Source: Bacilli bacterium
Lineage (GTDB): Bacteria; Bacillota_I; Bacilli_A; ML615J-28; CAG-698
Assembly: GCA_918272565.1 (NCBI GenBank)
Contig: CAKJYW010000002.1
Span: forward strand, 44,266-108,265
Reading direction: 5' to 3'
DNA: 64,000 nucleotides
The translations under genes and the position numbers were made by a program. Positions 15,082 to 32,937 of the stretch are shown here, piece by piece. Under the pieces are notes generated by a model, which had not been told where the DNA came from, did no database searches, and saw only the letters and a program-made list of their open reading frames with translations. Within the stretch, counting starts at the first letter, position 1. Each line of letters begins with the position of its first letter.

Positions 15082-16110
15082 TTACAATTGCTTTTTCACA
15101 AATTCAACAAATCTTGGAAGAATTATTCGACATTTCCCGTATTCAGTGCCTTCAATAATTCCTCTTTTAATTAATCTATCTCTATAAACAGAATATTCTT
15201 TAATTGTTAGATTAGTATTTGTCATAATGGTACTAGCATCTAACAGATCATCATTAAAGACTTTCAAAAACATCTTTTCTTTTTCAGGTAAACCACTCCA
15301 AATTTTAGCGTAAACATAGATAGACATATATTTATCAAATTCATCAATTAGATCTTCTATTTTTCCATATTTACTAAACAAGAAACCAGCAACCTGGTAA
15401 GCAAAAGCATAACCTTTAGTTAAGTTTGCTAGTGAAAATAGTTCTTCTTTTGAAGCATCACTAAAAATCTTTTGATATTCTATTTCAATTAAATTCAAAT
15501 CAAGGGGAACAAGTTCAATTTTAGGAGCACGATAAAGGAAAGTAAGATTTTTGTTATTTTGCAAAGAATTTACGTTTTCATATAATCCAGTCATTAGAGT
15601 AAAAACTGGATAATCATTCCTTAAAAACCCTTGAAAATCATGAGCGAAAGCTCTCATATATGAATTATTTGATGCTTCATCAATAGTAAACAAAACTCTT
15701 TTATCATTCTTCTTAACAACATCAAGCATTTTTTCAATAATTGTTTTTACATTAGATACAGGCTCTTTACCCTCAATTGAGATACCTAATCCATGAAAAG
15801 AAAACGAAAATGTCTTAGATAAAAATAGATACTTAGAATTTCTATTTTCATATAAGCCTGATGCTATTTGTTCTAATATATCCCTATCAGGATTAATGTC
15901 AATCAGTATCCACTTTTTATCTTTCTTAATATCGTTTGATATATCATTAAGCAAAACAGTTTTTCCAGATCCTCTTACTCCACATATAATGTATATATGT
16001 GATAAAGGATAATCTAATGTAAAATCATCGTACACTTGCTTTTTTAAAAAATCTCTATTGATATAACTTGTTGGGGAAAGACCAAAAGTAACTGAGAAAT
16101 TATTGTTCAT
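15082..16110 (-). CDS. AAA+ ATPase, archaeal-ATPase-like (Arch_ATPase/AAA_16-type) with probable C-terminal winged helix
   Basis: Walker A ICGVRGSGKTVLLND; Walker B-like VLFTIDEAS; 342 aa. Confidence 0.45.
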   Translation of the reverse strand: MNNNFSVTFGLSPTSYINRDFLKKQVYDDFTLDYPLSHIYIICGVRGSGKTVLLNDISNDIKKDKKWILIDINPDRDILEQIASGLYENRNSKYLFLSKTFSFSFHGLGISIEGKEPVSNVKTIIEKMLDVVKKNDKRVLFTIDEASNNSYMRAFAHDFQGFLRNDYPVFTLMTGLYENVNSLQNNKNLTFLYRAPKIELVPLDLNLIEIEYQKIFSDASKEELFSLANLTKGYAFAYQVAGFLFSKYGKIEDLIDEFDKYMSIYVYAKIWSGLPEKEKMFLKVFNDDLLDASTIMTNTNLTIKEYSVYRDRLIKRGIIEGTEYGKCRIILPRFVEFVKKQL

Positions 16111-16200: not shown

Positions 16201-16257
16201 TACAATAAAATTATATAGTACACAATAATATTTGTCAACAAAAAAAGTCATAATTTC

Positions 16258-17412
16258 TTATGACTTTCTTAGTAGAACTATAGCTTCAGCCACAACCGCC
16301 TTGCTTTCCCCAACATCTCCTACTTTTTCTCCTCTAGTTGCTTTAACATTAATTTTGTAACTAGGAACTTCAAGTAATTTAGAAATGTTATCTACCATAT
16401 CATGAATATAGGGACGCATCATTGGTCTTTCTATATATATAGTAGAATCTAGGTTAACAATGGTGTAGCCTGCTTTATCTAACATCTTTTTAGCATTTTT
16501 TAGAAAAATGCTAGATGAGGCATCTTTATATTTATCATCATTATCAGGAAAATGGGTTCCAATATCTCCCTTAGCTAGCGCTCCAATTATTGCTTCAGTT
16601 ATTGCATGAAGAAGTGCATCACCATCAGAGTGCGCAACAATCCTATATTCACAAGGAATCTTAACTCCACCTAAAGTTATTGCATCTCCACAATCTAAGC
16701 GATGTGTATCTTTTGATTGACCAACTAAATAGTCATTATTAAATCCAATCAAAGCATTAACTAATTCAAAATCATTCTCAGTTGTCACTTTAATGTTATT
16801 AGTCTCTGTTTGAATTAGTAAAGGATTGATATTGAAATAGAATTCTACAGCACTAACATCATCAGTAAATTCGATGTTTTCTTTTCTTGATCTAATTAAT
16901 GCTTTTAAAAGTAAATCAGTTTTTGATCCTTGAGGTGTCTTCATCGCCATTAAGTTGTGTCTTTCAACAACCCTATTTCTTGTTCCTGTTACTCTTCTAA
17001 CACTATCGTTTACTTTAGAAACTAAAGAAACTAAAGGATAATCCTTTAATCCATCTAAGACATTAGTGATGTCTTTTACAGATATTATAGGACGAGCACC
17101 ATCATGAACTAAAACATATTCACTAACCGCATTAACAAGACCATTATAGACGCTTTCGCTTCTAGCATTTCCCCCTTCAACAAACTCTATTCTTTTATCA
17201 CTAACTAAAGAATTAATGGTTTCAACCATTTTTTCTTTTTCTTCTTTTCTAACTACAACAATCAATTTTTGTAAATTATCAAAAGATAAGAACTTAACTA
17301 GTGAATAATAGAGCAGAGGTTTACCATTAACTTCGTATAAGACCTTATTATAGCCTAAACCGGCTCTAGTTGAAGAGCCGGCAGCAAGTACTATTGCATC
17401 AAATTCAATCAT
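16258..17412 (-). CDS. ispDF: Bifunctional 2-C-methyl-D-erythritol 4-phosphate cytidylyltransferase / 2-C-methyl-D-erythritol 2,4-cyclodiphosphate synthase (IspDF)
   Basis: N-terminal IspD motif AIVLAAGSSTRAG. C-terminal IspF segment HSDGDALLHAITEAIIGALAKGDIGTHFPDND. 384 aa, equal to the sum of both enzymes. Confidence 0.85.
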   Translation of the reverse strand: MIEFDAIVLAAGSSTRAGLGYNKVLYEVNGKPLLYYSLVKFLSFDNLQKLIVVVRKEEKEKMVETINSLVSDKRIEFVEGGNARSESVYNGLVNAVSEYVLVHDGARPIISVKDITNVLDGLKDYPLVSLVSKVNDSVRRVTGTRNRVVERHNLMAMKTPQGSKTDLLLKALIRSRKENIEFTDDVSAVEFYFNINPLLIQTETNNIKVTTENDFELVNALIGFNNDYLVGQSKDTHRLDCGDAITLGGVKIPCEYRIVAHSDGDALLHAITEAIIGALAKGDIGTHFPDNDDKYKDASSSIFLKNAKKMLDKAGYTIVNLDSTIYIERPMMRPYIHDMVDNISKLLEVPSYKINVKATRGEKVGDVGESKAVVAEAIVLLRKS

Positions 17413-17426
17413 AAATAAATCTTTTC

Positions 17427-18698
17427 TTATAGATTCTCTAAGAACTTATTACTTAAGTCAACTTTGCACTTTTCGAATTCAAGGTCGTTATTCTTTAGAG
17501 CATTTAAGTCATACTCAAAGTATCTACATTCTTTGTTTGTAGCGATGTATAAAGCTAAGCGACCAGCTTCAACATATTCTAATGAATTCTTTTCGCTAAC
17601 ACTTTCAGAATGAACAAATCCTAATACGTTAGTAACAAAGTACTTCTTTCCTTCGTAATCTGTTTCAAGTTCTAATAATTCAGAGTTCTTGCTCTTAACC
17701 ATGTGGATGTTATCACGATAAACATCAACATCAGTTGTTAAGATACAATATTCTCTACTACTAATCTTATAGATTGAATCGTTTTGTTTGAATAAATCTT
17801 TTTGAACACTTCTTAAGTAGTTTTCGATAACTGCATTTGCAGCTTCTTTACCTAAGTGTTTGATCAAGTTTTGGTTGTTAGTTACAAGAATTAAAGTCAT
17901 ACCAAATTCTTCACCAACAGAGATTAATCTTGATAATTCAAGTTCTAAGTCGTTACGATCGAAGATAGCTTCTGGATTAATTTGTTCTTTATGGAATGTA
18001 GCGATAACATCATCTTTTTCAAGATGTTTAACTTCTTCAAACCATATAATTCCGCTATTAGTTCTTAAACGATAACGATATTTAGCTTTAGCGCTTTTTT
18101 GTTTTAATAAGCCTTCATAAACATTGCTATCATCTTCAACAATAAAGTTCTTATATTCATCAACTGAAAGAGTTCTTGATTTAATATCGATTAACTCTCT
18201 CATTCCTTTTGTTAAGTGATATCCATTGATTCTTGCATCATAGAATCCTAGAGGTTCATCGATTGTATCTAAGTACTTATCAAATGCAAAAGTGAATTCA
18301 ACTTTTGGCGCAACTTCTGGAACTACTTCTTCCTCTGGTTGTTCTTCTTCACCTTCTGCTTCTTCTTTCTTAGATAGTCTTACAGCAAGAATAATCCAAT
18401 CAGCCACAAGCACTAAGAAATATAGGATTGTGGCAAAAAGAATCCAAGTTAAGTCTTGACGGCCTTCCCAATAGATAACATATCCTAGTAAACCTGCAAT
18501 AAAGTGAATTAATATCGCAAGTAGGGCTGATGCAAACATGAAGAATTCAAGGAAGAATATCTTCTTTTTCTTAGCAATCATCAAAACAAATAATAAAACG
18601 AACAAAACAGAAATTCCAATAACTAATAACAAATAGTTTTTGTTAATAAAGCTAATTATTGGGTTCAAAATGCTATTAATGTCAAAACTCAAAATCAT
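17427..18698 (-). CDS. Membrane protein (about 4 N-terminal TM helices, acidic linker) with a C-terminal degenerate GGDEF-like / nucleotide-cyclase-fold domain; sits in the CdaR position after cdaA
   Basis: The C-terminal segment TLILVTNNQNLIKHLGKEAANAVIENYLRSVQKDLFKQNDSIYKISSREYCILT aligns with the GGDEF pattern L.D.D.FK.IND..GH..GD..L...A..L......D...R.GGDEF..LL, but the GGDEF signature is replaced by SSREY. Confidence 0.3.
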   Translation of the reverse strand: MILSFDINSILNPIISFINKNYLLLVIGISVLFVLLFVLMIAKKKKIFFLEFFMFASALLAILIHFIAGLLGYVIYWEGRQDLTWILFATILYFLVLVADWIILAVRLSKKEEAEGEEEQPEEEVVPEVAPKVEFTFAFDKYLDTIDEPLGFYDARINGYHLTKGMRELIDIKSRTLSVDEYKNFIVEDDSNVYEGLLKQKSAKAKYRYRLRTNSGIIWFEEVKHLEKDDVIATFHKEQINPEAIFDRNDLELELSRLISVGEEFGMTLILVTNNQNLIKHLGKEAANAVIENYLRSVQKDLFKQNDSIYKISSREYCILTTDVDVYRDNIHMVKSKNSELLELETDYEGKKYFVTNVLGFVHSESVSEKNSLEYVEAGRLALYIATNKECRYFEYDLNALKNNDLEFEKCKVDLSNKFLENL

Positions 18699-18707
18699 AT
18701 TTGCCTC

Positions 18708-19508
18708 CTATTTAACATCTAAGAATCCATCTAACATTTCTTTTAATCGGTCAATTCTAAGTCCTAAACTTATTGTTCCACTAGATGCAACAGATATATT
18801 ACCTGTTTCCTCACTAACAACAATTGTTAAAGCATCGTATCTTTCACTTAAACCTATCGCTGCTCTATGACGTGTACCTAAGTTCTTAGGGATATCATAT
18901 TTATCAGTTGATGGTAAGTAAGCACCTGCGCACATGATCTTGTTCTTTCTAATGATAACTGCACCATCATGACAAGCAGTACCAGGATAGAAGATTGTTG
19001 TGAGGATTTCTTGGTTAATTGAAGAGTTGATAGGAATTGCTTTTTCAATGAAAGAATTCAAACTATCATTTCTTTCTATACTTATTAAAGCACCAATTTT
19101 CCTTTTTGACAAGTATTCTGCTGTATTACATAGTGTATCAATGATTTCTTGCTTTTCTAAAACGCTACTAAAGGCATTGTTTGTCTTGTTTGTTGTGAAA
19201 CGAATTTCAAAGTCATGCTTGATTTCTTGTGAATACACAACAATCAAACATACACCAAGTAACAAGGCACAGAACTTAAGTAGTACGTTAAATAACTCTA
19301 AAGAGAATACTAAAGACACAATATAAAGTATTATTCCAATCCCTAGTAAAATATAAAAGACAGGCTTTTTAATCTTCTTTAGAATGAAAGAAATCAGTAT
19401 CGAAATAACCACTATTGCTAGTATTACATCAATAACTAACTTTATTATACCACCAATTGAGTATCCATTGGTATATTCATTTAATAATTTTGTAAAAGTT
19501 TCAATCAT
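18708..19508 (-). CDS. cdaA: Diadenylate cyclase CdaA (DisA_N domain, membrane anchored)
   Basis: Three N-terminal TM helices, then DisA_N motifs ...TACHDGAVIIRKNKIMCAGAYLP...TRHRAAIGLSERYDALTIVVSEETGNISVA. Confidence 0.85.
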   Translation of the reverse strand: MIETFTKLLNEYTNGYSIGGIIKLVIDVILAIVVISILISFILKKIKKPVFYILLGIGIILYIVSLVFSLELFNVLLKFCALLLGVCLIVVYSQEIKHDFEIRFTTNKTNNAFSSVLEKQEIIDTLCNTAEYLSKRKIGALISIERNDSLNSFIEKAIPINSSINQEILTTIFYPGTACHDGAVIIRKNKIMCAGAYLPSTDKYDIPKNLGTRHRAAIGLSERYDALTIVVSEETGNISVASSGTISLGLRIDRLKEMLDGFLDVK

Positions 19509-19514
19509 TTTTTT

Positions 19515-20078
19515 CTACTCCTCTTTTAAAATCATATCTACTTTCATCTTTCTAGCTTCATCTAATGACTGACGAGGCAAAAAATATCTAATAATTTTCT
19601 CGTCTTTCTCATCAATGGCATAATCAATTGGTAGATTGTTTATTTCATCTAATAACAAAATATCAGCACCATTATCTACTAACAACTTAACCATATCTAA
19701 GTTACCTTTAGTAACGGCTAGATGCAAAGGTGTCTGTTCTAATTCCGTTCCAATATTTACATCGCACCCATAATCAATCAAGCATTTAACGAATTTAAGT
19801 TTATCTTCCATAACCGCTTTATGAATAGGCGCATCTCCGCTTTCATTTGCTAAATTAACATTAACACCACTTTCTAAGAAAATCTTAAAAAGTCTTAAGT
19901 CGTTCATCTTAATAGCAAGATGCAGTAAAGTGTTACCACTAGAGTTTTGAGTGTTAATATCAATATCTTCTTCTTTTAATCTATTTAGTGTATTTTTGAT
20001 ATATAGATAACGATGGGGATCACATTTAATAGAATATACAAAGTCACTAAATTTCTTCTTATTTCCTCTTTTGTACAT
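19515..20078 (-). CDS. Ankyrin-repeat protein (3-4 ANK repeats)
   Basis: GNTLLHLAIKMNDLRLFKIFLESGVNVNLANESGDAPIHKAV...TPLHLAVTKGNLDMVKLLVDNGADI. Its start overlaps the 3' end of the upstream helicase-like gene by 20 nt. Confidence 0.75.
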   Translation of the reverse strand: MYKRGNKKKFSDFVYSIKCDPHRYLYIKNTLNRLKEEDIDINTQNSSGNTLLHLAIKMNDLRLFKIFLESGVNVNLANESGDAPIHKAVMEDKLKFVKCLIDYGCDVNIGTELEQTPLHLAVTKGNLDMVKLLVDNGADILLLDEINNLPIDYAIDEKDEKIIRYFLPRQSLDEARKMKVDMILKEE

Positions 20079-23000
20079 TCTTTCCTCGCTTCATCTCTTC
20101 TAGCATCTTTTCATAATCTTTCGCAATACCAATCTTTGATATTAGTTTTGTATCAAAACCACTATTTAAATGGTTTTCATAAACATCACGATAAGTATTC
20201 ATTGATTCATCAGGAGTAGCATTTCCCCATAAGATTATATCAGCTTGAATGTTTTCTTGATTATATCTATATATTACTCCATTAGATGAGCAACTTGCTT
20301 TATATCCATCAGTCTCTAGATGCTTCTTGATATGTTCCATAACAGGTGTAGCACTAACCTCAGGTAGAGCATTCTCACAAACAAGTAGCTTCTTAATTCC
20401 TAAATAGAAACGATAAGCAAATTCACCATCAAGTAACTTATTATCATCATAGATAACCACTTTGTTTTTAGTGATTAAAAGTGAATCAATCAAGTTATCA
20501 CTAATATAGTCGACATCGATTGTATAATAATCTTCTAAGAATAAGATATTATAATCGCTATCATAATAATAACCACTAGATAAATCACATACATTAACTT
20601 GAGATAGAAGCAATGATAAAATCACATCTTCATTAATTCCCTTAGATAAGAAATAACCAGCAAATGCTTCGATAAACTCACTTTGTTTACCGATTTGTTT
20701 GATAAAGACATTTACTTTGATATTACAATTACGTTTGTAATTATCGTAAATGTATTTACAAACATTACCAGTTAAAACTTCAATTCCACAGTTATCGTTA
20801 TAATTTCTAGCGATTAACCCACTTATGCCACTAACTTTACATTGTAAGTTCTTAGGCATTGGTGTGTAGCGGTAATCGAAAGTGATTGTAGCGACTTGTC
20901 TTGTTCTACTGATTAGGTTATTAATAACTGATGTGTGGGTAGGTTTTTCACCACTTATAATAACTTGTTTAGCTAAGATGAAATCACCATAAGCGCTAGA
21001 TGAAAGCAAATGAGCATCATCAATAATAACCAAATCAAAATAGTTCTTATCTAAATACAAATTACAAATATCACTACTAGCAAGTATTACTTGCTTACTA
21101 TTACGACGAACATAATCAGCGTAATCCATAAACTTCTTGTTAATGTTACCATTACGAGAAGGTTCTCTCTTAATTCTTGATAATAACTTTTCTTCGTTAT
21201 TAACTACAACTTTCTTTTCTAGTTTGTATATTTCTTCTAACTTATTAATAAATTCTAAACTATTTTCTAGTTCAGGATATTTCTTGAAATAGATATTTAT
21301 GATATTAGTGAAATAAGTGTACTTAAAGTCATCAACTAACCCTTCACCATACTTACATTTAGAAGCGTAATTAATTAAACCATCTAAATGATATTCAGTT
21401 AATGCACTTAATCCCTCATTAGCATTTAGATATAATTCTAATTCGCTAGTAGAATTAAGTAAAGTCTCTAAATAATTAACAGTTTCATCTAAATCACTAT
21501 AATAATATCTAGAAACACCATCAACAAACATATGAGAATATGCTTTAAAGATATCGTTGATTTCATCACCTGTCTTCTTACATTTATCTAGGTGAACACT
21601 AATCTTTTCATATGTTTCATTCTTAAGGGCATCTAAGAAGCCACGAGCAGAGCTAAATGATTCCACAAAATCATTGTATGCATCAATTAAATCTGATAAA
21701 GCATTAATATCAGTTGCTTCTCCTTTGTAAGCTTCACCGAATAGTCTTTCATATTCGTAGTTGATATCAAAGTGCTTCTTTAAGTTCTCTCTCTTCGATA
21801 AACTTTCCTTTAAGAAATAATATGTCTTACTAGAAACAAAGTTTCCTTCTTTCTTCTTTAAGATCTTCTTTAGTCTATCGTTAGATGCATAGATATTACG
21901 CAAATAATCTAACACTTCAGTGATTTCTTCAATCTTCTTATTGAAATCTTTACTTAAAGTGATTCTATAACTTCCAATTAATAAAGCTAAATCCTCTAAG
22001 CCATAATAAGTTCTACGGAAGTTATTCAAAGATTTATTGATAGAAACATTATCTTTCTTGCATACTTCAATCAAAATCTTAATGATGCTCTTCTTATAAG
22101 TTTTTGTTGAAATGCTATCGTAGTATTCTTTAAAGTCACTAATCTTTTCTAAAACATCGTTATTAGGACGATATTTCTCAAGTGTTAGTTCGCTATATTC
22201 CTCTTTCTTTATTCTTAGTCTTTGAATATCAGAGAAATATCTTCTAACATGAGAGATTTGCTCTTCTAGATTACCACGTCCAAAGTACTTCTTTAATACA
22301 GAAGCCAAAGCCTTCTTAACTTTCTTTTCGTTACTTTGAAGATATTCTTCAATCAAACTCAAGATATCTTTAGCTTTCATCATTGCAACTTTAGGATAAT
22401 CAGTTGTGAAGTCTTTGATGTAATGAGTAGCATCATTGATTTCTTCTAAAACACTAGATACTTTTTTATAATATCCATCATATTCATCATTATTAATAGC
22501 ATTAATAACATTGCTATTAATCTCATGACTATCCAAAAATGTCATTAACTTTAATAGTTCACCAATCGAATCGTTGTTCTTACCAAAGTTGTATCCACTA
22601 ATCTTTTCGAATGTGGCGATACTCTTTCTGTAGTTGGCTATTTGTTCATTACCATCTAGAACTCTAACCATAATATCATTACGATTAGCAAATAGTTCAT
22701 CAATCAAATCTAGGTCATTTCTTGTATAGTATTTACCCATTATTTCATTGATTTCATCGTTGATATTAATCAAATCATAATTGTTAAATACTTGACCCAA
22801 ATTGAAATTGATCTCTTGGTAACTAGCTACATTATTCTTTAAACGTCTAAATTCATTTTGAGCTTTTCTAAAGCTTGATAAGTCACTGGTTTTCCAGCTT
22901 GAAGGAACACTGCGAATATCAAGTGCCTCAATCTTAGAAACGATCTTACGTAAAGATGCATAGTCGTTAATCTTAACTATAGAAAACTTTTCTTCTAGTG

Positions 23001-24324
23001 CCTTCTTCTCTTTTTTAAAGATAGAGAAGCATTCATAAATTCTCTTAATTAGCGTCATTATGACTTTAGCATCGCTTGCTTTGTTAGTTCTAGCAAGTGA
23101 CTTCCAATTAGAGTCGTTAAATACACCCATAGATTTAAGCGCTTCTTGGATTTTCTCTAATGCCTTAACGACTTCTAGATATTCATTTTTATATATATTA
23201 GAAAGGTCATCAATATCAATGATATTAGGTTTCTTATCAATCAAATTGATGATTTCATCTATTACTTCAATAAAACGATGGTCTAAGATTCTACTTCCAA
23301 TCTTTTCTTCAATCGAATTAATATATTGATAATCATCTTCTAATAAAGAATAATCAATATCGATGTGTTTAGCTGTCCAATCTTTTAACACTTCGCTATA
23401 AATCTTTTGATATGAATTAGTTAGATTAGATACATTATTACCTAGTCCATAATTATCAAGGTAATCTTCTACACTATCTAAAGTCTCTTTCATATTAGAG
23501 ATAAATAGAGTCTTTTTATTATCATACATTGCATTAAGCAAAATGTTCTTTAGAGCTAAAGTCTTACCAGTTCCATTTCCCCCAACAATCGTAAAGCTCT
23601 TTCCTAGTTTACTAACATAAACAGCTTTTCGTTGTTTCTTGTTTAACATGTCCGCAAAATAAACATCGCTTCCACGTAAATACATCTTATCATAGAAGAT
23701 ATCATCTTCAATATTTAATTCAAACTGGTTAGAATCAATCATGAACTCACGATTAGCAACTTCACCAAATGTTAAATAGTTTTCGATTTCTAGTCCTAGT
23801 CCATCAATCTTAACGATTTGAATACAGAAATGGTCGATACCATAAATTGTATCTTCTTCTAATGAAAGGCCTTCGATACCTCTACTTGATAATACCTTAA
23901 GTAAATAAGGATTAACAAATGATGTGGCTATCTTTTGAATTAAGATATCGTTTTGTTCATAATAAAGTTTAACAGGTATTAAAACAGCAGGAACAAACAC
24001 TTCTTTTTTGTCCTTGATATATTTAACAATGCCATATGTGATAAATAGTTGTCTATTTATGTTTTTCTTATTGATATTAAGAAAATAAATATATGGCATG
24101 ATGTTACGCATCTTGCTATTATTTAAGTTACTATGTCCAATGCCGGTATTTTGAATAGGCAAGTAAGCAACATCACTTAAAGAAACTAGTTCTTTTTTGA
24201 TTATTCTTTCAAATACAGTGACGTCAATGTTTCCTAGTTCAACATAACAATTGTCATTGAATATATTATTAAGATGTTGATTGTTATTACTAAGTTTTAA
24301 TAGTAATTCTTTTGCCATAATCAA
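20059..24324 (-). CDS. Large SF1 (Upf1-like, AAA_11/AAA_12-type) helicase-like ATPase with DUF4011-like N-terminus, ~840-aa helical insertion and a possible Vsr/DUF559-like C-terminal tail
   Basis: N-terminal LFITYGIVKY...VFVPAVLIPVKL resembles the DUF4011 core. Walker A TIVGGNGTGKTLALKN at ~aa 245. Motif II-like LVIIDDAHLL at ~aa 1090. Lys/Glu-rich low-complexity region in between. C-terminal HLETDGYKAS...DIILWGN resembles the E.DG..H endonuclease-fold tail common on such helicases. 1421 aa. Confidence 0.5.
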   Translation of the reverse strand: MIMAKELLLKLSNNNQHLNNIFNDNCYVELGNIDVTVFERIIKKELVSLSDVAYLPIQNTGIGHSNLNNSKMRNIMPYIYFLNINKKNINRQLFITYGIVKYIKDKKEVFVPAVLIPVKLYYEQNDILIQKIATSFVNPYLLKVLSSRGIEGLSLEEDTIYGIDHFCIQIVKIDGLGLEIENYLTFGEVANREFMIDSNQFELNIEDDIFYDKMYLRGSDVYFADMLNKKQRKAVYVSKLGKSFTIVGGNGTGKTLALKNILLNAMYDNKKTLFISNMKETLDSVEDYLDNYGLGNNVSNLTNSYQKIYSEVLKDWTAKHIDIDYSLLEDDYQYINSIEEKIGSRILDHRFIEVIDEIINLIDKKPNIIDIDDLSNIYKNEYLEVVKALEKIQEALKSMGVFNDSNWKSLARTNKASDAKVIMTLIKRIYECFSIFKKEKKALEEKFSIVKINDYASLRKIVSKIEALDIRSVPSSWKTSDLSSFRKAQNEFRRLKNNVASYQEINFNLGQVFNNYDLININDEINEIMGKYYTRNDLDLIDELFANRNDIMVRVLDGNEQIANYRKSIATFEKISGYNFGKNNDSIGELLKLMTFLDSHEINSNVINAINNDEYDGYYKKVSSVLEEINDATHYIKDFTTDYPKVAMMKAKDILSLIEEYLQSNEKKVKKALASVLKKYFGRGNLEEQISHVRRYFSDIQRLRIKKEEYSELTLEKYRPNNDVLEKISDFKEYYDSISTKTYKKSIIKILIEVCKKDNVSINKSLNNFRRTYYGLEDLALLIGSYRITLSKDFNKKIEEITEVLDYLRNIYASNDRLKKILKKKEGNFVSSKTYYFLKESLSKRENLKKHFDINYEYERLFGEAYKGEATDINALSDLIDAYNDFVESFSSARGFLDALKNETYEKISVHLDKCKKTGDEINDIFKAYSHMFVDGVSRYYYSDLDETVNYLETLLNSTSELELYLNANEGLSALTEYHLDGLINYASKCKYGEGLVDDFKYTYFTNIINIYFKKYPELENSLEFINKLEEIYKLEKKVVVNNEEKLLSRIKREPSRNGNINKKFMDYADYVRRNSKQVILASSDICNLYLDKNYFDLVIIDDAHLLSSSAYGDFILAKQVIISGEKPTHTSVINNLISRTRQVATITFDYRYTPMPKNLQCKVSGISGLIARNYNDNCGIEVLTGNVCKYIYDNYKRNCNIKVNVFIKQIGKQSEFIEAFAGYFLSKGINEDVILSLLLSQVNVCDLSSGYYYDSDYNILFLEDYYTIDVDYISDNLIDSLLITKNKVVIYDDNKLLDGEFAYRFYLGIKKLLVCENALPEVSATPVMEHIKKHLETDGYKASCSSNGVIYRYNQENIQADIILWGNATPDESMNTYRDVYENHLNSGFDTKLISKIGIAKDYEKMLEEMKRGKNVQKRK

Positions 24325-24429
24325 TACCTACTTATCCAAAATATATTATATCATAAACAATGATAAAAAAAAATAAAAGTGATTTATTTAATGTATTTTG
24401 ATATAATAAATAGGAAAGAAGATGAAATT

Positions 24430-25900: not shown

Positions 25901-26821
25901 TTAATCATCACTTTCTTCTAATGTTTCTAATATTGCTTCTATCTCTTTAAGGCTAGCCTTATAATTAATTGCTCCTTTATATAAAGTAGATAAAGATGCA
26001 CAAACATTTGAATAAATGATTGCTTTTTCTATATCATAATTATTTGACAAGCAGTAACATAGCATCGCATTAAAAGCATCACCAGCACCTGTTGTATCAA
26101 CTGGTGTTATTTTTATAGTTTCATATTTTGTAATAATTCCATCTTTGAAGTGAAGTGCTCCATTTTTACCAATTGTAACAATAACTTCTTTTATTTTTAG
26201 TTCATCCATTTTACTAGCAATTAGTTCTAAATCTTCATCTTCATCTAAATTAAAGATTGCTCTAGCTTCCCCTTCATTTGGAGTAATGATATCTGCAAAT
26301 TGTAAAAGGGATGCATATTCGCTATTATATGGAGCCGGATTAATGATAATCTTTACTCCTTTTTCTTTAGCAATACTAATAGCTTCTAAATTAGCACTAA
26401 AAGGAACTTCAAACTGAAGTGATAAGATATCACTTGCTTCGATTCTTTCTTTATAGTCTATAATATCATTTACTTTTAGTTTTAGGCTTGCCCCTGGATA
26501 TTCAGTAACGATGTTTTCTCCATATTTATCTTTTAAGATATAAGCAAAGGCAGTTTTATCATCTTTTTTAATTAAATCAAAATTGATTCCTCTTTTTCTT
26601 AAGTCGCTAATACACTTTTCTCCACCTTCATCATTTCCAATTGATGATAAGAAAAAGACATCAGTTCCAAGACTATTTAAAATAACTGCTTGGTTATAGC
26701 CTTTTCCTCCTACTTCTTCAGAGAAATTAGATGTAATTATTGTTTCACCTTTTTTAGGTAAATGATCTGACTCTAAAAAATAACTATTTCCACTTAATCC
26801 AATAACAAATACTTTATTCAT
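25901..26821 (-). CDS. rbsK: PfkB-family sugar kinase, ribokinase-like
   Basis: GGKGYNQAVIL and DTTGAGDAFNAML ribokinase signatures; 306 aa. Confidence 0.6.
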   Translation of the reverse strand: MNKVFVIGLSGNSYFLESDHLPKKGETIITSNFSEEVGGKGYNQAVILNSLGTDVFFLSSIGNDEGGEKCISDLRKRGINFDLIKKDDKTAFAYILKDKYGENIVTEYPGASLKLKVNDIIDYKERIEASDILSLQFEVPFSANLEAISIAKEKGVKIIINPAPYNSEYASLLQFADIITPNEGEARAIFNLDEDEDLELIASKMDELKIKEVIVTIGKNGALHFKDGIITKYETIKITPVDTTGAGDAFNAMLCYCLSNNYDIEKAIIYSNVCASLSTLYKGAINYKASLKEIEAILETLEESDD

Positions 26822-26911: not shown

Positions 26912-28726
26912 TTATTTAATATCTTCTTTAGGATCTTTACCTAAACGTTTTAATGTCTCAACAACATAGCTTTCACGATATTCATCTTTACTGCTTCTTT
27001 CATAAGCTGACTTGAAGAATTCTAGGTTAGCTTGTTCATAAGGAATACCAGCGATATTAGCGATGATTCTTGTTGAACGGTCGATTAGTTTCTTGTTTGT
27101 AGGTAAAACTTGGATCATCCAGTTACTCCAAACACGTCCCATCTTAGCCATTGTAGCTGTTGATAAAACGTTGAATGCTAACTTAACCATTAAGTGAGTC
27201 ATTAATTCATTAGAAGTTCTTGTTAATTTAACAGGAATTAAGATTTCGTTTTCGTATTTCTTTCCCTTAGAGATTTCACCCATACGGATTAAAACACCTT
27301 TTTCAAACTTCTTAACTTCTTCTTTGAACCATGCAAGTACTTCAGGAGTAGCACTGCCATTAATATCCATACAAACTAATACGTTAGGTTTACGTGAGTA
27401 ACGTGATTCATCATCACAGTTACCGATGTTGTATTGTTCTACTTCTTCGCTTCCAACTTTAGGCATATTTGCGATAATGTCAGGAGCAGCTTCAAGTCTA
27501 ATATAGTCTTCCTTAGTCCAGTTAAGACCTTTGATTGGACGACGGAATACATGTTGCCATGCAACTTCATTAGGATATAGAGGGTCTTTAACGTATGCCC
27601 AACTTAATTCAGCATTCTTATCATTGAATTTTCTAAATGGTGGAAGTGTGAATGTTGGTTGACGTTCAGTTGTATCAGTCATAATATCAAGTAGATAATC
27701 ATGTGTACAATAAGTAACTAGTCCATGGTTATCATAAATTGATTTTTCAAGTTCAACTGCAGCAGCTAAGCCTTTTAATGCTTTTCCGCTTGATAGTTGT
27801 TTGTTGATGGCTTTGAATTGTTTTGCATATTCGTTGATATCTAAAGCAACGATTCCTGCAACTTCTTTTTCAGCTTCAGTTAAGTTTTCATCACACCACT
27901 TTTGACATGCTAGTTCAAATGCGGCACCAGCAACTAATAATTCAACTGTAGTTACTTGCATACGAGTTGATCCACTAACTGCCATGTTACCAACAAATAA
28001 TGGCATCTTAATGATGTTAGGACGAGCAAATACTTTTCTAACTCTCTCTAAGTGTTCGCAAAGAATATTTTTTGGATTACAGAATAAATAATAAGTAGTA
28101 CATCCACGGATGTCAGCTTCAATTACTGAACCATTGATTGATGCAGAAAGACCGCACTCAGATAAACCAAGTAGTACATCACCAACACCAATTCCTGCTT
28201 CTCTTACTTGTTCAGCACCAAATGTCATATAGTCTTCGAAGTTTTCTACACTTCTAACTAATGCTCTATCGCCACCTGTAGTAAATGATTCAACACGATT
28301 AGCGTTATACATGAATTGTTCACGCTTTGCTGGAATCTTATTAGCAAGGTTAGTCCAGAAATATCTCCATGCTGCATCTAGTTGAATAGCCATTCTTCCA
28401 CTAGCACCAACTGAAGAAATAACAACTCTCTTGTTTTCATCAATAACACGTTTGCAATCATCAACTAATCTAGCAAATTCTTTTGACTTGAATGCACGTG
28501 CAGCAACTGTTGGAATATCAACATGCTTTCCTTCATAAGTGTTCTTAACATCAGCTGATAAGATCATAGCAACACCAGCAGCTGTGTCTTTAGCGATTGT
28601 TGCGCTCAAGTTACGTGTCAAAACGTTAGATTGTTCAGTAGGAATTACACCTAAATGGAATTGTTTTTCATTTTCAATGAAATCTTTAGAGGCTAACTTA
28701 TAGTCCTTTATATCTTTATAATCCAT
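26912..28726 (-). CDS. Long (604 aa) GCKR/MurQ-family SIS-domain protein (N-acetylmuramic-acid-6-phosphate-etherase-like / glucokinase-regulator-like)
   Basis: The segment VSGSTRMQVTTVELLVAGAAFELA matches the conserved MurQ/GCKR loop [23 protein letters not shown], and VISSVGASGRMAIQL looks SIS-like. At ~600 aa it is twice the length of MurQ, as in eukaryotic GCKR. Confidence 0.4.
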   Translation of the reverse strand: MDYKDIKDYKLASKDFIENEKQFHLGVIPTEQSNVLTRNLSATIAKDTAAGVAMILSADVKNTYEGKHVDIPTVAARAFKSKEFARLVDDCKRVIDENKRVVISSVGASGRMAIQLDAAWRYFWTNLANKIPAKREQFMYNANRVESFTTGGDRALVRSVENFEDYMTFGAEQVREAGIGVGDVLLGLSECGLSASINGSVIEADIRGCTTYYLFCNPKNILCEHLERVRKVFARPNIIKMPLFVGNMAVSGSTRMQVTTVELLVAGAAFELACQKWCDENLTEAEKEVAGIVALDINEYAKQFKAINKQLSSGKALKGLAAAVELEKSIYDNHGLVTYCTHDYLLDIMTDTTERQPTFTLPPFRKFNDKNAELSWAYVKDPLYPNEVAWQHVFRRPIKGLNWTKEDYIRLEAAPDIIANMPKVGSEEVEQYNIGNCDDESRYSRKPNVLVCMDINGSATPEVLAWFKEEVKKFEKGVLIRMGEISKGKKYENEILIPVKLTRTSNELMTHLMVKLAFNVLSTATMAKMGRVWSNWMIQVLPTNKKLIDRSTRIIANIAGIPYEQANLEFFKSAYERSSKDEYRESYVVETLKRLGKDPKEDIK

Positions 28727-28882: not shown

Positions 28883-30685
28883 CTATTCAATTATTTCAAA
28901 TATTTCTACTAAATTCATCACTTTAATATTAGGATAAGAAGTAGGTTCACTTTTAGCACTTTTTTCAAAATCGCTCTTGCTTCCACAGTACTCATTTCCT
29001 GCACTCTCATTACCAAATCTCTTACCGAATCCATTATTATAATTGAGGTATTCTTCAAAATCATTGTAATGATTATATGTATAGAATACTTTTCTTTGAT
29101 TAATCGATTTAATGCTTTTATCACTAATAAAGCAGAACCTTGCGGCACCACGATTGATTGTTGTGCCCGTGTTATACACTTTTTGTGTATATTTAGTTCC
29201 AGTAACCTTGTTTTCGTTTGTGTAACCACCTAATGTTCCAAAGTCAGTTTCAGTGTATTCATAGATACTAATCCCTGGCATCTCTGGTTCATATGGCCAT
29301 TTTGAGCTATCATACATCATAATATCTTGATTAACCCTACCATAAATACCAAAGTCAGCGATACAATCACTCTTGCCTTTTGATTTATCGTATTTGTTAT
29401 TAACTGGAGTCTCTCCAAATGCTAGGATGTATGCAGCAACTTCATTTAAAGAAGCATATGCTCCACCATACCAAATCATTTGGAAATTGCCTTCTAAATC
29501 ATTAGGTAAATATCCTAAATAGCCTCCATTATAATCAAGCACATAAAAGGCATGAGTTAAATAAATATATGTATCTTCATAAGTTACATCATATTTATTA
29601 GGGATGTGTCCTTGAGGAGTGATATCACCACTCATAAGACCATGAAGTGATCTAAAATAAGAGTCTATATAACTATCTGCTTCACTATAATTATTATAGA
29701 ATTCTTCTTTATCGATACCAGCATAAGGGTCTGTAGCACTACTAATATCATATGAAGTAAAGACACAATAAACATCATCACCATAGATATCTAAATCAAT
29801 TCCATAAGGATTATCAACATCATTAGAATAAATTATAATATCATTGCCTAATACTGAATATAAATATTCTTTATATGATAATTCATATTCATCATAACTA
29901 ATGAAATTATTAACTTTAGCTAATTCTATTTCATTATAGATGATAGAAACATATTTATTACTACTAACGCTAGTAATAAAACCAGTTATTTTTACTTCTT
30001 TATCTAAATAATTGTTTAATGATGATGCATCAATTGGATAAGCAACGCTTATTACGGCTTTAGCTCCATCAATTATCAAATTATAATATGAACCACTTTT
30101 AATTAATGTACCAGCTACACTTACATATTCAGCTTTGATTTCATCGACACTTAAATAATTATCTAAAGCAGCTTTATCAACTTCTTTTGGTTTACTAAAG
30201 TGGATGTCCCATGTTCCTTCTTTAGTATAGGTTGATGATTTATCAAATTGAATTGATTTACCATAACTTACAACATTACCAACAACACTTACTGTATCAC
30301 CAATAGCTAGATCAGTAGTCCAAGTGTTTCCTAAATAAACCAAAATGTTACCAGTTCCATCGCTAAGCAAGAAGCTTTCCTTATTCACCGCTAAAACAAC
30401 ACCTATAGTTTTAGCTTCACCTAACTTTAATTCACTTATCTTTGAATAGTCATCTTGAGGTTGCTCATCTTCCTTAGGGTCTTCTTCGCCTGGTTCTTCC
30501 TCTTGAGGCACTTGTTCCTCTTCAGGCACTTGTTCCTCTTGAGGTTCTTCCTCTATAGGATCATCTATTATTGGATCTTCTTCTTTAGGGGGATTTTGTT
30601 CGGTTTCTAAAAAGGAACAAGCACCTAATATCAAGCTAAAGAATAAAAGTAAAACCAATAATATCTTTTTATAATTAATCTTCAT
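28883..30685 (-). CDS. Surface lipoprotein with acidic EEQVPEEE repeat and an OB-fold-like module, function unknown
   Basis: Lipobox SLILGACSFLE. Low-complexity EEEPQEEQVPEEEQVPQEEEPGEEDPKEDEQ. LKLGEAKTIGVVLAVNKESFLLSDGTGNILVYL resembles tRNA_anti/YhcR-type OB folds. 600 aa. Confidence 0.45.
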   Translation of the reverse strand: MKINYKKILLVLLLFFSLILGACSFLETEQNPPKEEDPIIDDPIEEEPQEEQVPEEEQVPQEEEPGEEDPKEDEQPQDDYSKISELKLGEAKTIGVVLAVNKESFLLSDGTGNILVYLGNTWTTDLAIGDTVSVVGNVVSYGKSIQFDKSSTYTKEGTWDIHFSKPKEVDKAALDNYLSVDEIKAEYVSVAGTLIKSGSYYNLIIDGAKAVISVAYPIDASSLNNYLDKEVKITGFITSVSSNKYVSIIYNEIELAKVNNFISYDEYELSYKEYLYSVLGNDIIIYSNDVDNPYGIDLDIYGDDVYCVFTSYDISSATDPYAGIDKEEFYNNYSEADSYIDSYFRSLHGLMSGDITPQGHIPNKYDVTYEDTYIYLTHAFYVLDYNGGYLGYLPNDLEGNFQMIWYGGAYASLNEVAAYILAFGETPVNNKYDKSKGKSDCIADFGIYGRVNQDIMMYDSSKWPYEPEMPGISIYEYTETDFGTLGGYTNENKVTGTKYTQKVYNTGTTINRGAARFCFISDKSIKSINQRKVFYTYNHYNDFEEYLNYNNGFGKRFGNESAGNEYCGSKSDFEKSAKSEPTSYPNIKVMNLVEIFEIIE

Positions 30686-32937
30686 TATTCAAAATATTCC
30701 TTTTTTATCATCTCTAAATCTTCTCTAATCTTAATATGTTGAGGACAAAGAGTTTCGCACTTACCACACTTCTTGCATAAATCTGGAGTCTCGCCATCTT
30801 TCTTAATTTGACCGATTGACCATTCTTGTTTTATTCCATACATCTTTGAGTCATTAGCAACTCTAAAGATTCTAGGGATATTAACTCCAAATGGACAAGG
30901 CATACAGTACCTACATCCTGTACATGAATTTAATACTCTAGTTTTAAATACTTTAACCGCTTCGCAAATAGCATCATTTTCTCTTTTTGAAAAATATGTT
31001 AAAGATTTAAAAGTATTAATATTATCTTTTACTTGATCTTCGCTACTCATTCCACTTAAGATTACCATGATGTTATCAAATTGAGCAACATACCTTAACG
31101 CCCAACTAGCACTACTCCAAGTGCTATTTACTTTATCTAGACTACTTCTTACATCATCTGGTAACCTTGCTAGTGCTCCACCTTTAACAGGTTCCATAAT
31201 AATTACTGGAATACCTTTTTCTTTACATAGTTTTAAGCCTTTTAATCCTGCTTGATTATCAACGTCTAGATAATTAAACTGGATTTGGCAAAAATCCCAC
31301 TTGTGATAATTAATAATTTCACTAAATGCTTCATAGCTATCATGGAAAGAGAATCCTAAATGACGAATCTTTCCTTCTTTTTTAAGCCCTTCAAAATATT
31401 CAATTAAACCTAATTTCTTAATTGCTTCAAAGCGCTCTTTTCCAATAGCGTGGAATAAATAATAATCAAAATAGTCTTTATGTAGTTTAGTTAGTTGCTC
31501 ATTAAATAGGCGCTTTGCATCGTCTAACGTATTTACTAAATACATTGGAAGTTTTGTGGCTAGATTATAGGTAGATCTATCATATCTATCTAAGACTTCC
31601 CCTACAAAGAGTTCACTTTCTCCATCATGATACATATACGCAGTGTCATAATAATTGATACCTTGTTTATAGGCATAATCAATCATCTCACTAGCTTTCT
31701 CTCTATCAATCTTACCATCTTTTTGAGGAAGGCGCATACAACCAAAGCCAAGTAGACTTATCCTATCATCAGTTTTCTTTCTGTATTCTAATTTTCCCCT
31801 TATATGAGTTGATAGTTCTAGCGTCTTGGTTTCTTTAGTTTCATTATCAATTAAGATGATTTTATAACTAATGTCTTCATCTTTTTCTGGTAATTCTTTG
31901 ATTCTACCATTTGGTAAAACAATATCGCTAGAGCATTCAAACTTGATATCTATTCCTTTAGATAGTTTTAATACTTCTAGCTCCACTTCAACCATTTTCT
32001 TAAAGTTCTCCCACAAATTAGCATGGCGCATTGTCATAGGGCAATCTTTACCACTAAAGAAGTGATGAGGTTTTACTCTTGTTACATCTAAATTATTATC
32101 AAGACATAAATGACTAACAAGCTTAGCACATCTTTGCCATGTTAAATAAAGGTCACTACCTTCATTAACCATTGTTTCTATACCTATTGAGTGTAAATTG
32201 CCACCACGATTAGAAATATAACCGTATCCAGCGCTAAAATATGTTGGACCCATGTAATATTTACCATCAATTAGGTCAATTCTTATTCCTTCATCGTTGA
32301 TTTTAGTTGGGTAGAATTCTTCACCATCTTTTGCACCCTCTGGAGCAAGGCGACGCTGGATCGCTCCATTACAATAATAATGAAGTTTTCCATCTTCACC
32401 CATCTTAAATAAAACTTTAGGAGAAGCAATTTCACTTTTCTTGTTATCGATATAATAATATCCATCAATTATTTCTACTTTTGGATTAGGATTAGTCCCA
32501 CTAACCCCAGTATCAGTTAAGCTAAATGGTACACTTGTTCCATCGCCTGCGTGATATGCCACTTCATCATCAGGTACTTGATGGTAAATCGCATCATCAC
32601 CACTAGAATAGTGCCAACTAGTTCCGCCACCACCATTAGATACATACTTTGCATGAGCTAGGGCGTTAGCAGTTGGTGCAGCGGATGCAGTATCGTGAAC
32701 AACTACATATTCAGTTGATGTTTTAATAGTCCCTGGGCGGTTGTTATTAGGCCCTTCACCATTTTTAGGACAGATATATTCAATAACTTCATGATCCATA
32801 AACAAATATTTGTTTACTGAACCAATTACTCTAGTACCATAATTGTACTGATATCCAAAGGCTTCTAAATCTTTAACAATAACTTCTTTTTCATTTGCAT
32901 CTTTTAAAATAGATGCGATTTTTTCTAATCTACTCAT
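30685..32937 (-). CDS. Fusion protein: N-acetylmuramoyl-L-alanine amidase (Amidase_2/PGRP fold) + aldo/keto reductase with C-terminal 4Fe-4S ferredoxin-like domain
   Basis: Amidase_2 motifs VVVHDTAS, AYHAGDG, NLHSIGIE and KPHHFFSGKDCP (aa ~75-300). AKR core LGFGCMRLPQ...YYDTAYMYHDGESE (aa ~395-700). Cys cluster CTGCRYCMPCPFG...CKKCGKCETLCP at the C-terminus. Single uninterrupted 750-aa ORF. Confidence 0.6.
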   Translation of the reverse strand: MSRLEKIASILKDANEKEVIVKDLEAFGYQYNYGTRVIGSVNKYLFMDHEVIEYICPKNGEGPNNNRPGTIKTSTEYVVVHDTASAAPTANALAHAKYVSNGGGGTSWHYSSGDDAIYHQVPDDEVAYHAGDGTSVPFSLTDTGVSGTNPNPKVEIIDGYYYIDNKKSEIASPKVLFKMGEDGKLHYYCNGAIQRRLAPEGAKDGEEFYPTKINDEGIRIDLIDGKYYMGPTYFSAGYGYISNRGGNLHSIGIETMVNEGSDLYLTWQRCAKLVSHLCLDNNLDVTRVKPHHFFSGKDCPMTMRHANLWENFKKMVEVELEVLKLSKGIDIKFECSSDIVLPNGRIKELPEKDEDISYKIILIDNETKETKTLELSTHIRGKLEYRKKTDDRISLLGFGCMRLPQKDGKIDREKASEMIDYAYKQGINYYDTAYMYHDGESELFVGEVLDRYDRSTYNLATKLPMYLVNTLDDAKRLFNEQLTKLHKDYFDYYLFHAIGKERFEAIKKLGLIEYFEGLKKEGKIRHLGFSFHDSYEAFSEIINYHKWDFCQIQFNYLDVDNQAGLKGLKLCKEKGIPVIIMEPVKGGALARLPDDVRSSLDKVNSTWSSASWALRYVAQFDNIMVILSGMSSEDQVKDNINTFKSLTYFSKRENDAICEAVKVFKTRVLNSCTGCRYCMPCPFGVNIPRIFRVANDSKMYGIKQEWSIGQIKKDGETPDLCKKCGKCETLCPQHIKIREDLEMIKKEYFE

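Follow-up and report, generated by a model that had tools for sequence, protein, structure and literature searches.

A 64,000-nucleotide stretch of contig CAKJYW010000002.1 from a Bacilli bacterium (assembly GCA_918272565.1), hereafter the window, carries on its minus strand a gene for a large helicase-like protein (bigHel), followed by genes for an ankyrin-repeat protein (ank) and for the cyclic di-AMP (c-di-AMP) synthase CdaA. We found that bigHel-ank-cdaA is a vertically inherited, clade-specific unit of wall-less Bacilli/Mollicutes (Acholeplasmatales, Anaeroplasma and related lineages of metagenome-assembled genomes, MAGs), and that bigHel derives from the DUF4011-AAA_11-AAA_12-MTES_1575 helicase-nuclease family, whose whole domain order it retains. 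The reading that we favor, tentatively and with slightly less than even confidence, is that of an exapted, nuclease-dead ATPase working with an ankyrin adaptor in a clade-specific cdaA operon and possibly regulating CdaA. A preliminary description of the window had proposed a candidate novel two-gene defence system. This was not borne out, and the lead is on control of CdaA and on DUF4011 function instead.

Related loci were collected by scanning GTDB species, each represented by one genome, and at least 25 were returned. The relatives are MAGs or metagenome contigs, and statements on all relatives refer to all those retrieved. They came from Acholeplasmataceae/Acholeplasmatales MAGs, Anaeroplasma bactoclasticum (class Mollicutes in the NCBI taxonomy), 'Coprobacillus sp. 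CAG:698' and many 'Bacilli bacterium' MAGs. Among the matches listed (25 loci), the order bigHel-ank-cdaA was identical in all 24 that extend past the bigHel stop; a gene similar to orf423, which follows cdaA in the window, was found downstream together with ispD/F, and hflX nearby. Both junctions within the triad were tight in each of these 24 loci: the bigHel stop and the ank start overlapped by 1-23 nucleotides (nt) or were at most 4 nt apart, while ank and cdaA overlapped by up to 32 nt or left a gap of no more than 19 nt. Translational coupling of bigHel to ank is thus conserved throughout the clade. Identity of bigHel among the listed loci was only 23-35%, and the tight junctions persisted at 23%. 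Conversely, the adjacent intervals gained and lost genes. The one between hflX and bigHel varied among genomes from 0 to 6 kb (clpC, RNR, MatE), and the one between cdaA and ispDF varied with MGS-like and other small genes. In every retrieved genome bigHel was present as a single copy at one fixed locus. The proposed joining of a helicase-ankyrin pair to cdaA thus recurs across the clade, always beside cdaA. In a metagenome scan made with the CdaA alignment, all three loci with CdaA identity of at least 50% and 7 kb of upstream sequence carried clpC-bigHel-ank, and neither bigHel nor ank was found in any of ~70 loci with CdaA identity of 45% or lower (both counts among the matches listed).

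Scans against curated profiles were insufficient to place bigHel in a family, therefore we assigned it by profile-profile comparison and structure. The Pfam scan gave sub-threshold P-loop matches only, at amino acids (aa) ~229-390, with no DUF4011, AAA_11 or AAA_12 and no MTES_1575/Vsr-like nuclease. The DUF4011 profile PF13195 scored 13.5 bits (E 0.071; cutoff 22.2), over profile positions 99-157 only, and none of 36 bigHel orthologues had a precomputed PF13195 match. NCBIfam matches were below the equivalog cutoffs (ProA, 76.9 bits vs 1500, E 6e-22; Hhe, 41 bits vs 2000, E 4e-11), and PADLOC returned PDC-S37 (E 1.8e-32, aa 231-774). We observed 36 full-length homologues of ~1370-1450 aa, with identity from 27 to 100%. 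Among 1.84 billion cluster representatives the family had ~80 members (50%-identity clusters, 1330-1510 aa), past which the matches fell to proteins covering aa 227-410 only. The nearest proteins outside the family were all canonical DUF4011+AAA_11+AAA_12+MTES_1575 proteins. When the bigHel alignment (A1) was compared by hhalign with 12 canonical DUF4011 proteins, the probability was 99.94% (E 4e-37, 1119 aligned columns), and the match ran from A1 columns 67-1436 to canonical columns 100-1394, reaching the C-terminus. Against a single canonical protein (P0037) the probability was 97.8%.

The family profile also matched IGHMBP2 by sequence (E 2e-10). The AlphaFold2 model of aa 222-1421 (predicted local distance difference test score, pLDDT, 85) resembled Upf1-like superfamily 1B (SF1B) helicases across both RecA domains, and Foldseek returned the same set; in this model bigHel has two RecA-like domains with the SF1B topology. 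All of its structural neighbours were nucleic-acid helicases. No solved structure matched the DUF4011-like head domain. The label 'DUF4011-type Upf1-like' given in the preliminary description is thus apt as a statement of remote homology, upheld by hhalign and by the fold, although no curated Pfam or NCBIfam threshold was reached.

Similarly to canonical DUF4011 proteins (PF13195/PF13086/PF13087/PF18741; Hhe NF042953, ProA NF058533, PDC-S37), bigHel has, over its full length, a DUF4011-type head, a Walker A motif at aa ~250-300, a long helical insertion, Walker B, RecA2 and a small Vsr/MTES_1575 tail. The helical insertion was collinear with that of the canonical proteins in hhalign, and its middle was the fastest-evolving part of bigHel. 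On the other hand, bigHel remained under all Pfam/NCBIfam thresholds, was ~100-900 aa shorter than the sampled relatives, and was always found with the ankyrin gene and cdaA at one inherited locus, not in variable islands. It also had neither motifs V and VI nor the nuclease residues D...E-x-D. Motif V (QGDERD) and motif VI (GGERRLNVAITRAK, with the arginine finger) had no bigHel counterpart in the alignment to canonical relatives, which confirms the earlier claim of erosion in the C-terminal RecA-like motifs. At the tail, hhalign set bigHel on the MTES_1575 domain, with the canonical invariant D and E-C-D facing variable, non-acidic residues; the D of RIDLAV and the E-C-D of IECDG had no counterpart, and YR(D/E) was the sole conserved motif of the nuclease domain. 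What had been called an endonuclease-like tail is therefore present as a domain remnant, but its catalytic acidic residues are gone.

The ATP-binding site showed a different pattern. The Q motif (Q231, R232), just ahead of Walker A, was invariant, and so was motif Ia (S276, N277) in 30 orthologues. Motif II was read as FDLVIIDDAH, which agrees with the reported DDAH in place of DEAxQ, and was followed by a partial remnant of motif III, KQVIISGE; the two aligned to the canonical FDLVIFDEASQ and IIAGDxKQLPP and to motifs II/III of IGHMBP2. Across the 30 orthologues Q1120 was invariant and R1152 (YRY) nearly so. The bigHel alignment contained 46 invariant columns, complete Walker A and B included. 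In the N-terminal domain the invariant residues were H17, E29, G31, G61, P77, G98, F110, P112, P117, N138, E181 and T185. Compared with Upf1-like SF1B helicases (Upf1, IGHMBP2, Senataxin/Sen1, Aquarius, Dna2, ZNFX1, RecD2, Dda), bigHel keeps motifs I, Ia and II, the last as DDAH and not DEAxQ; the window copy lacks the motif III glutamine, motifs V and VI are missing, a 760-aa helical insertion stands in place of the 1B/1C domains, and a DUF4011 head and a dead nuclease tail are added.

Mean pairwise identity was 0.48-0.50 in the RecA1 halves, 0.41 in the N-terminal domain and 0.35 in RecA2, compared to 0.22-0.36 in the helical insertion (0.22 in its middle) and 0.24 in the C-terminal tail. 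Strong constraint is thus limited to the DUF4011-like head and the ATP-binding RecA1 site (Q motif, Walker A, Ia, Walker B). Constraint of this kind fits a protein that binds ATP and whose head domain matters, and does not fit a working motor-nuclease. With motifs V and VI lost and Walker A and B invariant, the ATPase core appears non-canonical, as had been suggested, and judging from its residues it is probably non-translocating.

The partners of bigHel were more readily classified. Ank has 3-4 repeats, detected by Pfam Ank families at E 1e-21 to 5e-27, and its orthologues (134-209 aa) were confined to the clade that carries bigHel. CdaA passed the NCBIfam equivalog TIGR00159 (198.3 bits vs a cutoff of 188.8); it has an N-terminal membrane anchor and a diadenylate cyclase (DAC) domain (E 1e-40), in which the DGA (H180-D-G) and RHR (R213-H-R) motifs were intact and invariant. 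CdaA normally makes c-di-AMP under the control of CdaR and GlmM, two partners tied to cell-wall synthesis. In its anchor and DAC domain, and in passing the TIGR00159 cutoff, the CdaA described here is as orthodox as that of the Firmicutes cdaA-cdaR-glmM operon. However, no YbbR (CdaR) or phosphoglucosamine mutase (glmM) match was found in the present operon, where an ankyrin gene precedes cdaA and a gene for a membrane protein with a degenerate GGDEF-like domain follows it.

The latter gene, orf423, codes for N-terminal transmembrane segments and a C-terminal GGDEF-like domain. Alone it had no Pfam match, while a profile of 19 orthologues matched GGDEF domains in the PDB (E 1e-4). We call the domain degenerate because no residue of the GGDEF motif is invariant in the family. 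Orthologues lay between cdaA and ispDF in loci L001 and L005-L025, and the family could be another partner of CdaA. The gene occupies the place of CdaR in the canonical operon. Between cdaA and the GGDEF-like gene some loci had a gene of 117-128 aa (L001:11526-11879, with equivalents in L009, L011, L012, L017 and L018); the product of the L001 copy, the one that was scanned, has an MGS-like domain. Downstream, ispDF matched Pfam IspD (E 2e-45) and YgbB (E 2e-53).

The coordinates of the genes, domains and motifs are collected in Table 1. The tight packing of three minus-strand genes, with a 20-nt overlap and a ~6-nt gap, was confirmed exactly as the preliminary description had it. For bigHel, the start at ATG 24318 is preferred over TTG 24324, because it gives a protein of 1419 aa, the same length as a database copy (P0001), and an AGG Shine-Dalgarno (SD) core lies 8-9 nt before it, at proper spacing. 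The ank ATG is preceded at 5 nt by the SD sequence GAGGA, the cdaA ATG by the SD sequence AAAGAGGAG, located within the 3' end of ank, and the orf423 start by TAGGAGG. A consensus scan of the minus strand from 16258 to 24324 found no terminator-like sites, in agreement with the earlier claim, and the junctions are too short for any. The putative -10 element of an operon promoter lies ~25 nt upstream of ATG 24318, inside the ~100-nt gap to the divergent hflX, and the first perfect sigma-70 consensus on the minus strand, TTGACA-17-TATAAT (16238-16210), was found past ispDF. We infer that bigHel, ank, cdaA, orf423 and ispDF are co-transcribed, which would make them one operon, longer than the three genes first described. 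No Rfam family reached its gathering score across the window (no tRNA, rRNA or riboswitch); therefore known RNA elements, c-di-AMP riboswitches among them, play no part here.

Table 1. Genes, protein domains, motifs and putative promoter element of the bigHel-ank-cdaA region (positions in the window)
Feature	Position	Strand	Remarks
putative extended -10 element, TGaTATAAT	24345..24353	-	read from the sequence; possible operon promoter
bigHel (large gene)	20059-24324	-	1421-aa open reading frame counted from TTG
N-terminal domain, DUF4011-like (aa 1-200)	23725..24324	-	among the best conserved parts
Walker A / motif I, GGNGTGKT (aa 248-255, G248xxGxGKT255)	23560..23583	-	family-invariant; alignment A1
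all-helical insertion, ~760 aa (aa ~300-1060)	21145..23427	-	splits RecA1; AlphaFold2 secondary structure
Walker B / motif II, FDLVIIDDAH (aa 1096-1105)	21010..21039	-	D1097, D1102 and D1103 invariant
RecA2-like domain (aa ~1136-1305)	20410..20919	-	fold retained; motifs V and VI lost
C-terminal domain, ~100 aa, alpha-beta-beta-beta-alpha-beta	20062..20367	-	degenerate MTES_1575/Vsr-like; AlphaFold2 topology
ank (ankyrin-repeat protein, 187 aa)	19515-20078	-	start overlaps bigHel stop by 20 nt
cdaA (266 aa, membrane-anchored diadenylate cyclase)	18708-19508	-	6 nt past ank stop
orf423 (423 aa)	17427-18698	-	start 9 nt past cdaA
ispDF (fused ispD/ispF, methylerythritol phosphate pathway)	16258-17412	-	14-nt gap after orf423; last tightly packed gene

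The chromosomal position of the unit offers a further comparison. A gene for a ClpC-like AAA+ protein of ~650 aa (Clp_N, AAA, AAA_lid_9, AAA_2) directly preceded bigHel, in the same orientation, in 14 genome loci and 3 metagenome loci among the matches listed (L002, L006, L008, L010, L011, L013, L015-L017, L019, L021, L022, L024, L025, L032-L034); in the window, clpC is gone from this position. We infer an ancestral order clpC-bigHel-ank-cdaA-(transmembrane protein)-ispDF, which would parallel, in position only, the Firmicutes order clpC-radA-disA-yacL-ispD-ispF. One Firmicutes MAG had radA-disA-...-carD-PIN protein-ispDF-gltX-cysE-cysS. The radA-disA-yacL genes of B. subtilis are flanked by clpC and ispD/F. 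In that species disA and yacL follow radA (PMC6755099), and RadA is reported, in titles cited by the same paper, to modulate DisA. Queries with RadA, DisA and YacL from L027 gave no tblastn match, either in the window or across genome loci L001-L026 (26 loci).

In both arrangements a nucleic-acid-related P-loop ATPase gene stands immediately upstream of a diadenylate cyclase gene, or of the ankyrin gene that precedes it, between clpC and ispD/ispF. By analogy, RadA-DisA may serve as a precedent for a nucleic-acid-handling ATPase that controls a neighbouring diadenylate cyclase. The differences are nevertheless substantial: bigHel is unrelated to RadA in both sequence and fold, the cyclase is the membrane protein CdaA and not the DNA-scanning DisA (the DisA linker and helix-hairpin-helix are absent), and the ankyrin gene sits between the genes for the ATPase and the cyclase.

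Put together in a mechanism, these observations suggest the following. We consider it probable that bigHel has lost the ability to unwind or cut nucleic acid and has become an ATP-gated binding or switch protein in a stoichiometric complex with Ank. Its conformation would switch when ATP is bound, or slowly hydrolysed, at the RecA1/RecA2 cleft, with neither translocation nor cutting. By the simplest route, the ankyrin repeats would act as the adaptor to the cytoplasmic DAC domain of CdaA. It is possible, and we put this forward with reserve, that through Ank the complex is functionally tied to CdaA and tunes c-di-AMP synthesis to a signal of nucleic-acid or ATP state. The synthesis of c-di-AMP would then be under nucleic-acid- or energy-state input, in a cdaA operon that has neither CdaR nor GlmM. 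A more specific version, which we regard as rather unlikely, would be that an anti-phage-type DUF4011 helicase-nuclease was domesticated in the ancestor of the clade, was stripped of its nuclease and motor functions and now, together with Ank, senses the state of nucleic acid or of the genome in an ATP-dependent manner and so gates CdaA.

Several points weigh against a regulatory tie of bigHel-Ank to CdaA. Physical contact between bigHel, Ank and CdaA is a prediction, and loss of the motif VI arginine is no proof that ATPase or translocase activity is gone. Promoter-like matches inside the unit occurred at background level, and internal promoters are possible. Synteny extends to the wider block hflX...ispDF...pgi, and ispDF belongs to the unit with no obvious functional tie; therefore operon membership alone is weak evidence of function. 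A contig with CdaA at 37% identity (L036) keeps the same neighbourhood: hflX and RNR are divergent from cdaA, which is followed by genes for a nucleotidyltransferase, a 781-aa protein and a GGDEF protein, then ispD and ispF, and neither bigHel nor ank is present in the contig. Since it has cdaA without the pair, CdaA can work without bigHel-ank. Either the L036 lineage has lost the pair, or the clade acquired it on top of an older cdaA...GGDEF-ispDF arrangement. In favor of such a tie, the distance matrices of bigHel, Ank and CdaA correlated with each other at r 0.82-0.91, compared to 0.55-0.69 with those of ispDF or hflX, and partial r was 0.69-0.85 after regressing out ispDF and hflX (Mantel p ~5e-4, 10 genomes), but the test was made with query-anchored alignments on 10-16 genomes with two control genes, and non-linear saturation may inflate such values. 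This co-variation is compatible with shared constraints and is suggestive only.

Two genes of the L036 contig deserve a separate mention. The 384-aa gene directly upstream of ispD (L036:11018-12172) passed the Pfam GGDEF threshold (36.6 bits) and is the positional equivalent of orf423; a tblastn search with orf423 did not detect it. The 781-aa gene downstream of cdaA was considered as a divergent bigHel and rejected (hhalign probability 0.2%). Proteins of ~780 aa were encoded after cdaA in two outgroup contigs, at L035:3456-5795 and L036:8657-11002. They share 28% identity, have no Pfam match, carry a Rossmann-like GxGxxG motif at the N-terminus and transmembrane helices at the C-terminus, and are unrelated to bigHel.

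The main rival explanation is that the exapted DUF4011 ATPase and Ank have a nucleic-acid housekeeping role of their own, e.g., in RNA/DNA quality control or in chromosome- or ribosome-associated remodelling, with no regulatory link to c-di-AMP; adjacency to cdaA would then be historical synteny in slowly rearranging small genomes. We consider this possible. Conservation of the whole hflX-...-ispDF-...-pgi block, the presence of ispDF in the operon with no evident functional link, the equivalent neighbourhood kept around cdaA in L036, and structural neighbours that are all nucleic-acid helicases speak for it. Synteny of the block, however, leaves the difference between junctions to be accounted for, as both of those within the triad were tight in all 24 listed genomes, down to 23% identity, while the adjacent ones gained and lost genes. 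Distances between bigHel, Ank and CdaA also co-varied beyond the two neighbouring controls, and the motor motifs that a helicase-type role would call for are decayed.

Less likely is that bigHel-ank is a chromosomally fixed system against phages or other mobile genetic elements, of the Hhe/ProA/PDC-S37 kind, in which the ATPase would sense foreign nucleic acid and Ank would be a sensor or effector adaptor. The site beside cdaA would then be incidental, or would be the trigger of a c-di-AMP-linked growth arrest. We regard this as improbable. The matches of bigHel to ProA, Hhe and PDC-S37 given above are weak but significant, Ank matched ankyrin-containing PADLOC candidates, and the family of origin of bigHel carries a nuclease tail. 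However, the ProA and Hhe scores were far under the equivalog cutoffs (77 vs 1500 and 41 vs 2000 bits), the nuclease catalytic residues and motifs V/VI are gone, and one copy per retrieved genome sits at one locus across deep divergence. DUF4011 genes can moreover be core elsewhere, for example in P. aeruginosa (PMC10250203).

A mobile defence system was rejected on synteny and on the lack of relatives in plasmids, phages and viral contigs: no bigHel relatives were found in 72,556 plasmids, 50,697 phage records and IMG/VR. Pfam and NCBIfam scans of the neighbours showed no defence or mobile genes directly adjacent to the operon, and those in the window are housekeeping genes (hflX, PfkB kinase, SIS-domain protein, ispDF, radical SAM/SPASM protein, pgi, TsaE/TsaD). 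The framing of the locus as a defence island did not survive these results. We observed instead a conserved orthologue at the same locus in all relatives, 24 of 24 listed, between hflX/clpC and cdaA-ispDF, a pattern that the preliminary description had itself named as grounds for refuting its proposal. Because the same triad occupies the same locus in every relative examined, we regard the operon as core and inherited, not as a mobile anti-phage system. The last alternative, a decaying and functionless helicase-nuclease relic, could appeal to the lost motor motifs and nuclease residues and to the low orthologue identity (23-35%), but is very improbable and was rejected on the integrity of the ~1420-aa open reading frame in all retrieved genomes and in ~80 clusters at 50% identity that differ little in length, and on the 46 invariant columns with complete Walker A and B, besides the confident AlphaFold2 model (pLDDT 85).

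Other genes around the locus were also observed. Behind the TTGACA-17-TATAAT promoter (16210-16238), window positions 15082-16110 (-) code for a 342-aa ATPase_2/AAA_14-type P-loop protein, weakly similar to the defence-associated ATPases mad8, PtuA and AriA. The gene is a lineage-specific insertion after ispDF, since it was present in the same-species contigs L030 and L031 and not in the loci of other species. The near-identical strain L030 has an extra gene for a 416-aa AAA_14/DUF4143 ATPase (L030:279-1529) between the genes for the PfkB kinase and hflX. It is not in the window; therefore the content beside the operon is variable at the strain level. The sole mobile-element-like gene among the neighbours scanned was that of an ORF6N-domain protein, ~10 kb from the operon (34050-35012, -). 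The ORF6N domain is common in phage and mobile-element regulators. A 750-aa fusion of N-acetylmuramoyl-L-alanine amidase, aldo/keto reductase and 4Fe-4S dicluster domains is encoded at 30685-32937 (-), near the genes for a SIS-domain (GKRP/MurQ-like) protein (26912-28726, -) and the PfkB kinase (25901-26821, -). The combination is unusual in a lineage presumed to be wall-less, and may point to scavenging of peptidoglycan-derived sugars.

The DUF4011/Upf1-like superfamily, ankyrin repeats and CdaA are all of known kinds. What is new is a discrete, catalytically stripped and vertically inherited DUF4011 subfamily with an obligate ankyrin partner and its clade-wide joining to a cdaA operon. In our literature search we found no account of a helicase-ankyrin pair joined to cdaA, in line with the earlier statement that the coupling was undescribed, and no relevant work on cdaA with ankyrin proteins, on c-di-AMP in Acholeplasma or on PDC-S37.

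With bigHel, the DUF4011 family has a clear case of a member that is core, inherited vertically and stripped of its catalytic features, and this calls for caution, since not every DUF4011- or Hhe-like match is a defence gene. The protein is also a tractable starting point for working out what the conserved DUF4011 head does. Wall-less Bacilli/Mollicutes-like lineages include abundant gut organisms of the RF39/Acholeplasma type. For such lineages the operon supplies three conserved, uncharacterised candidates for control of CdaA: the degenerate ATPase, Ank and the GGDEF-like membrane protein. If the link to CdaA is true, bigHel-Ank would be an analogue of RadA-DisA in the same clpC...ispDF slot, standing in for CdaR/GlmM. 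Should the domestication scenario hold as well, the pair would be an undescribed input to c-di-AMP synthesis that replaces both the RadA-DisA checkpoint and the CdaR/GlmM controls.

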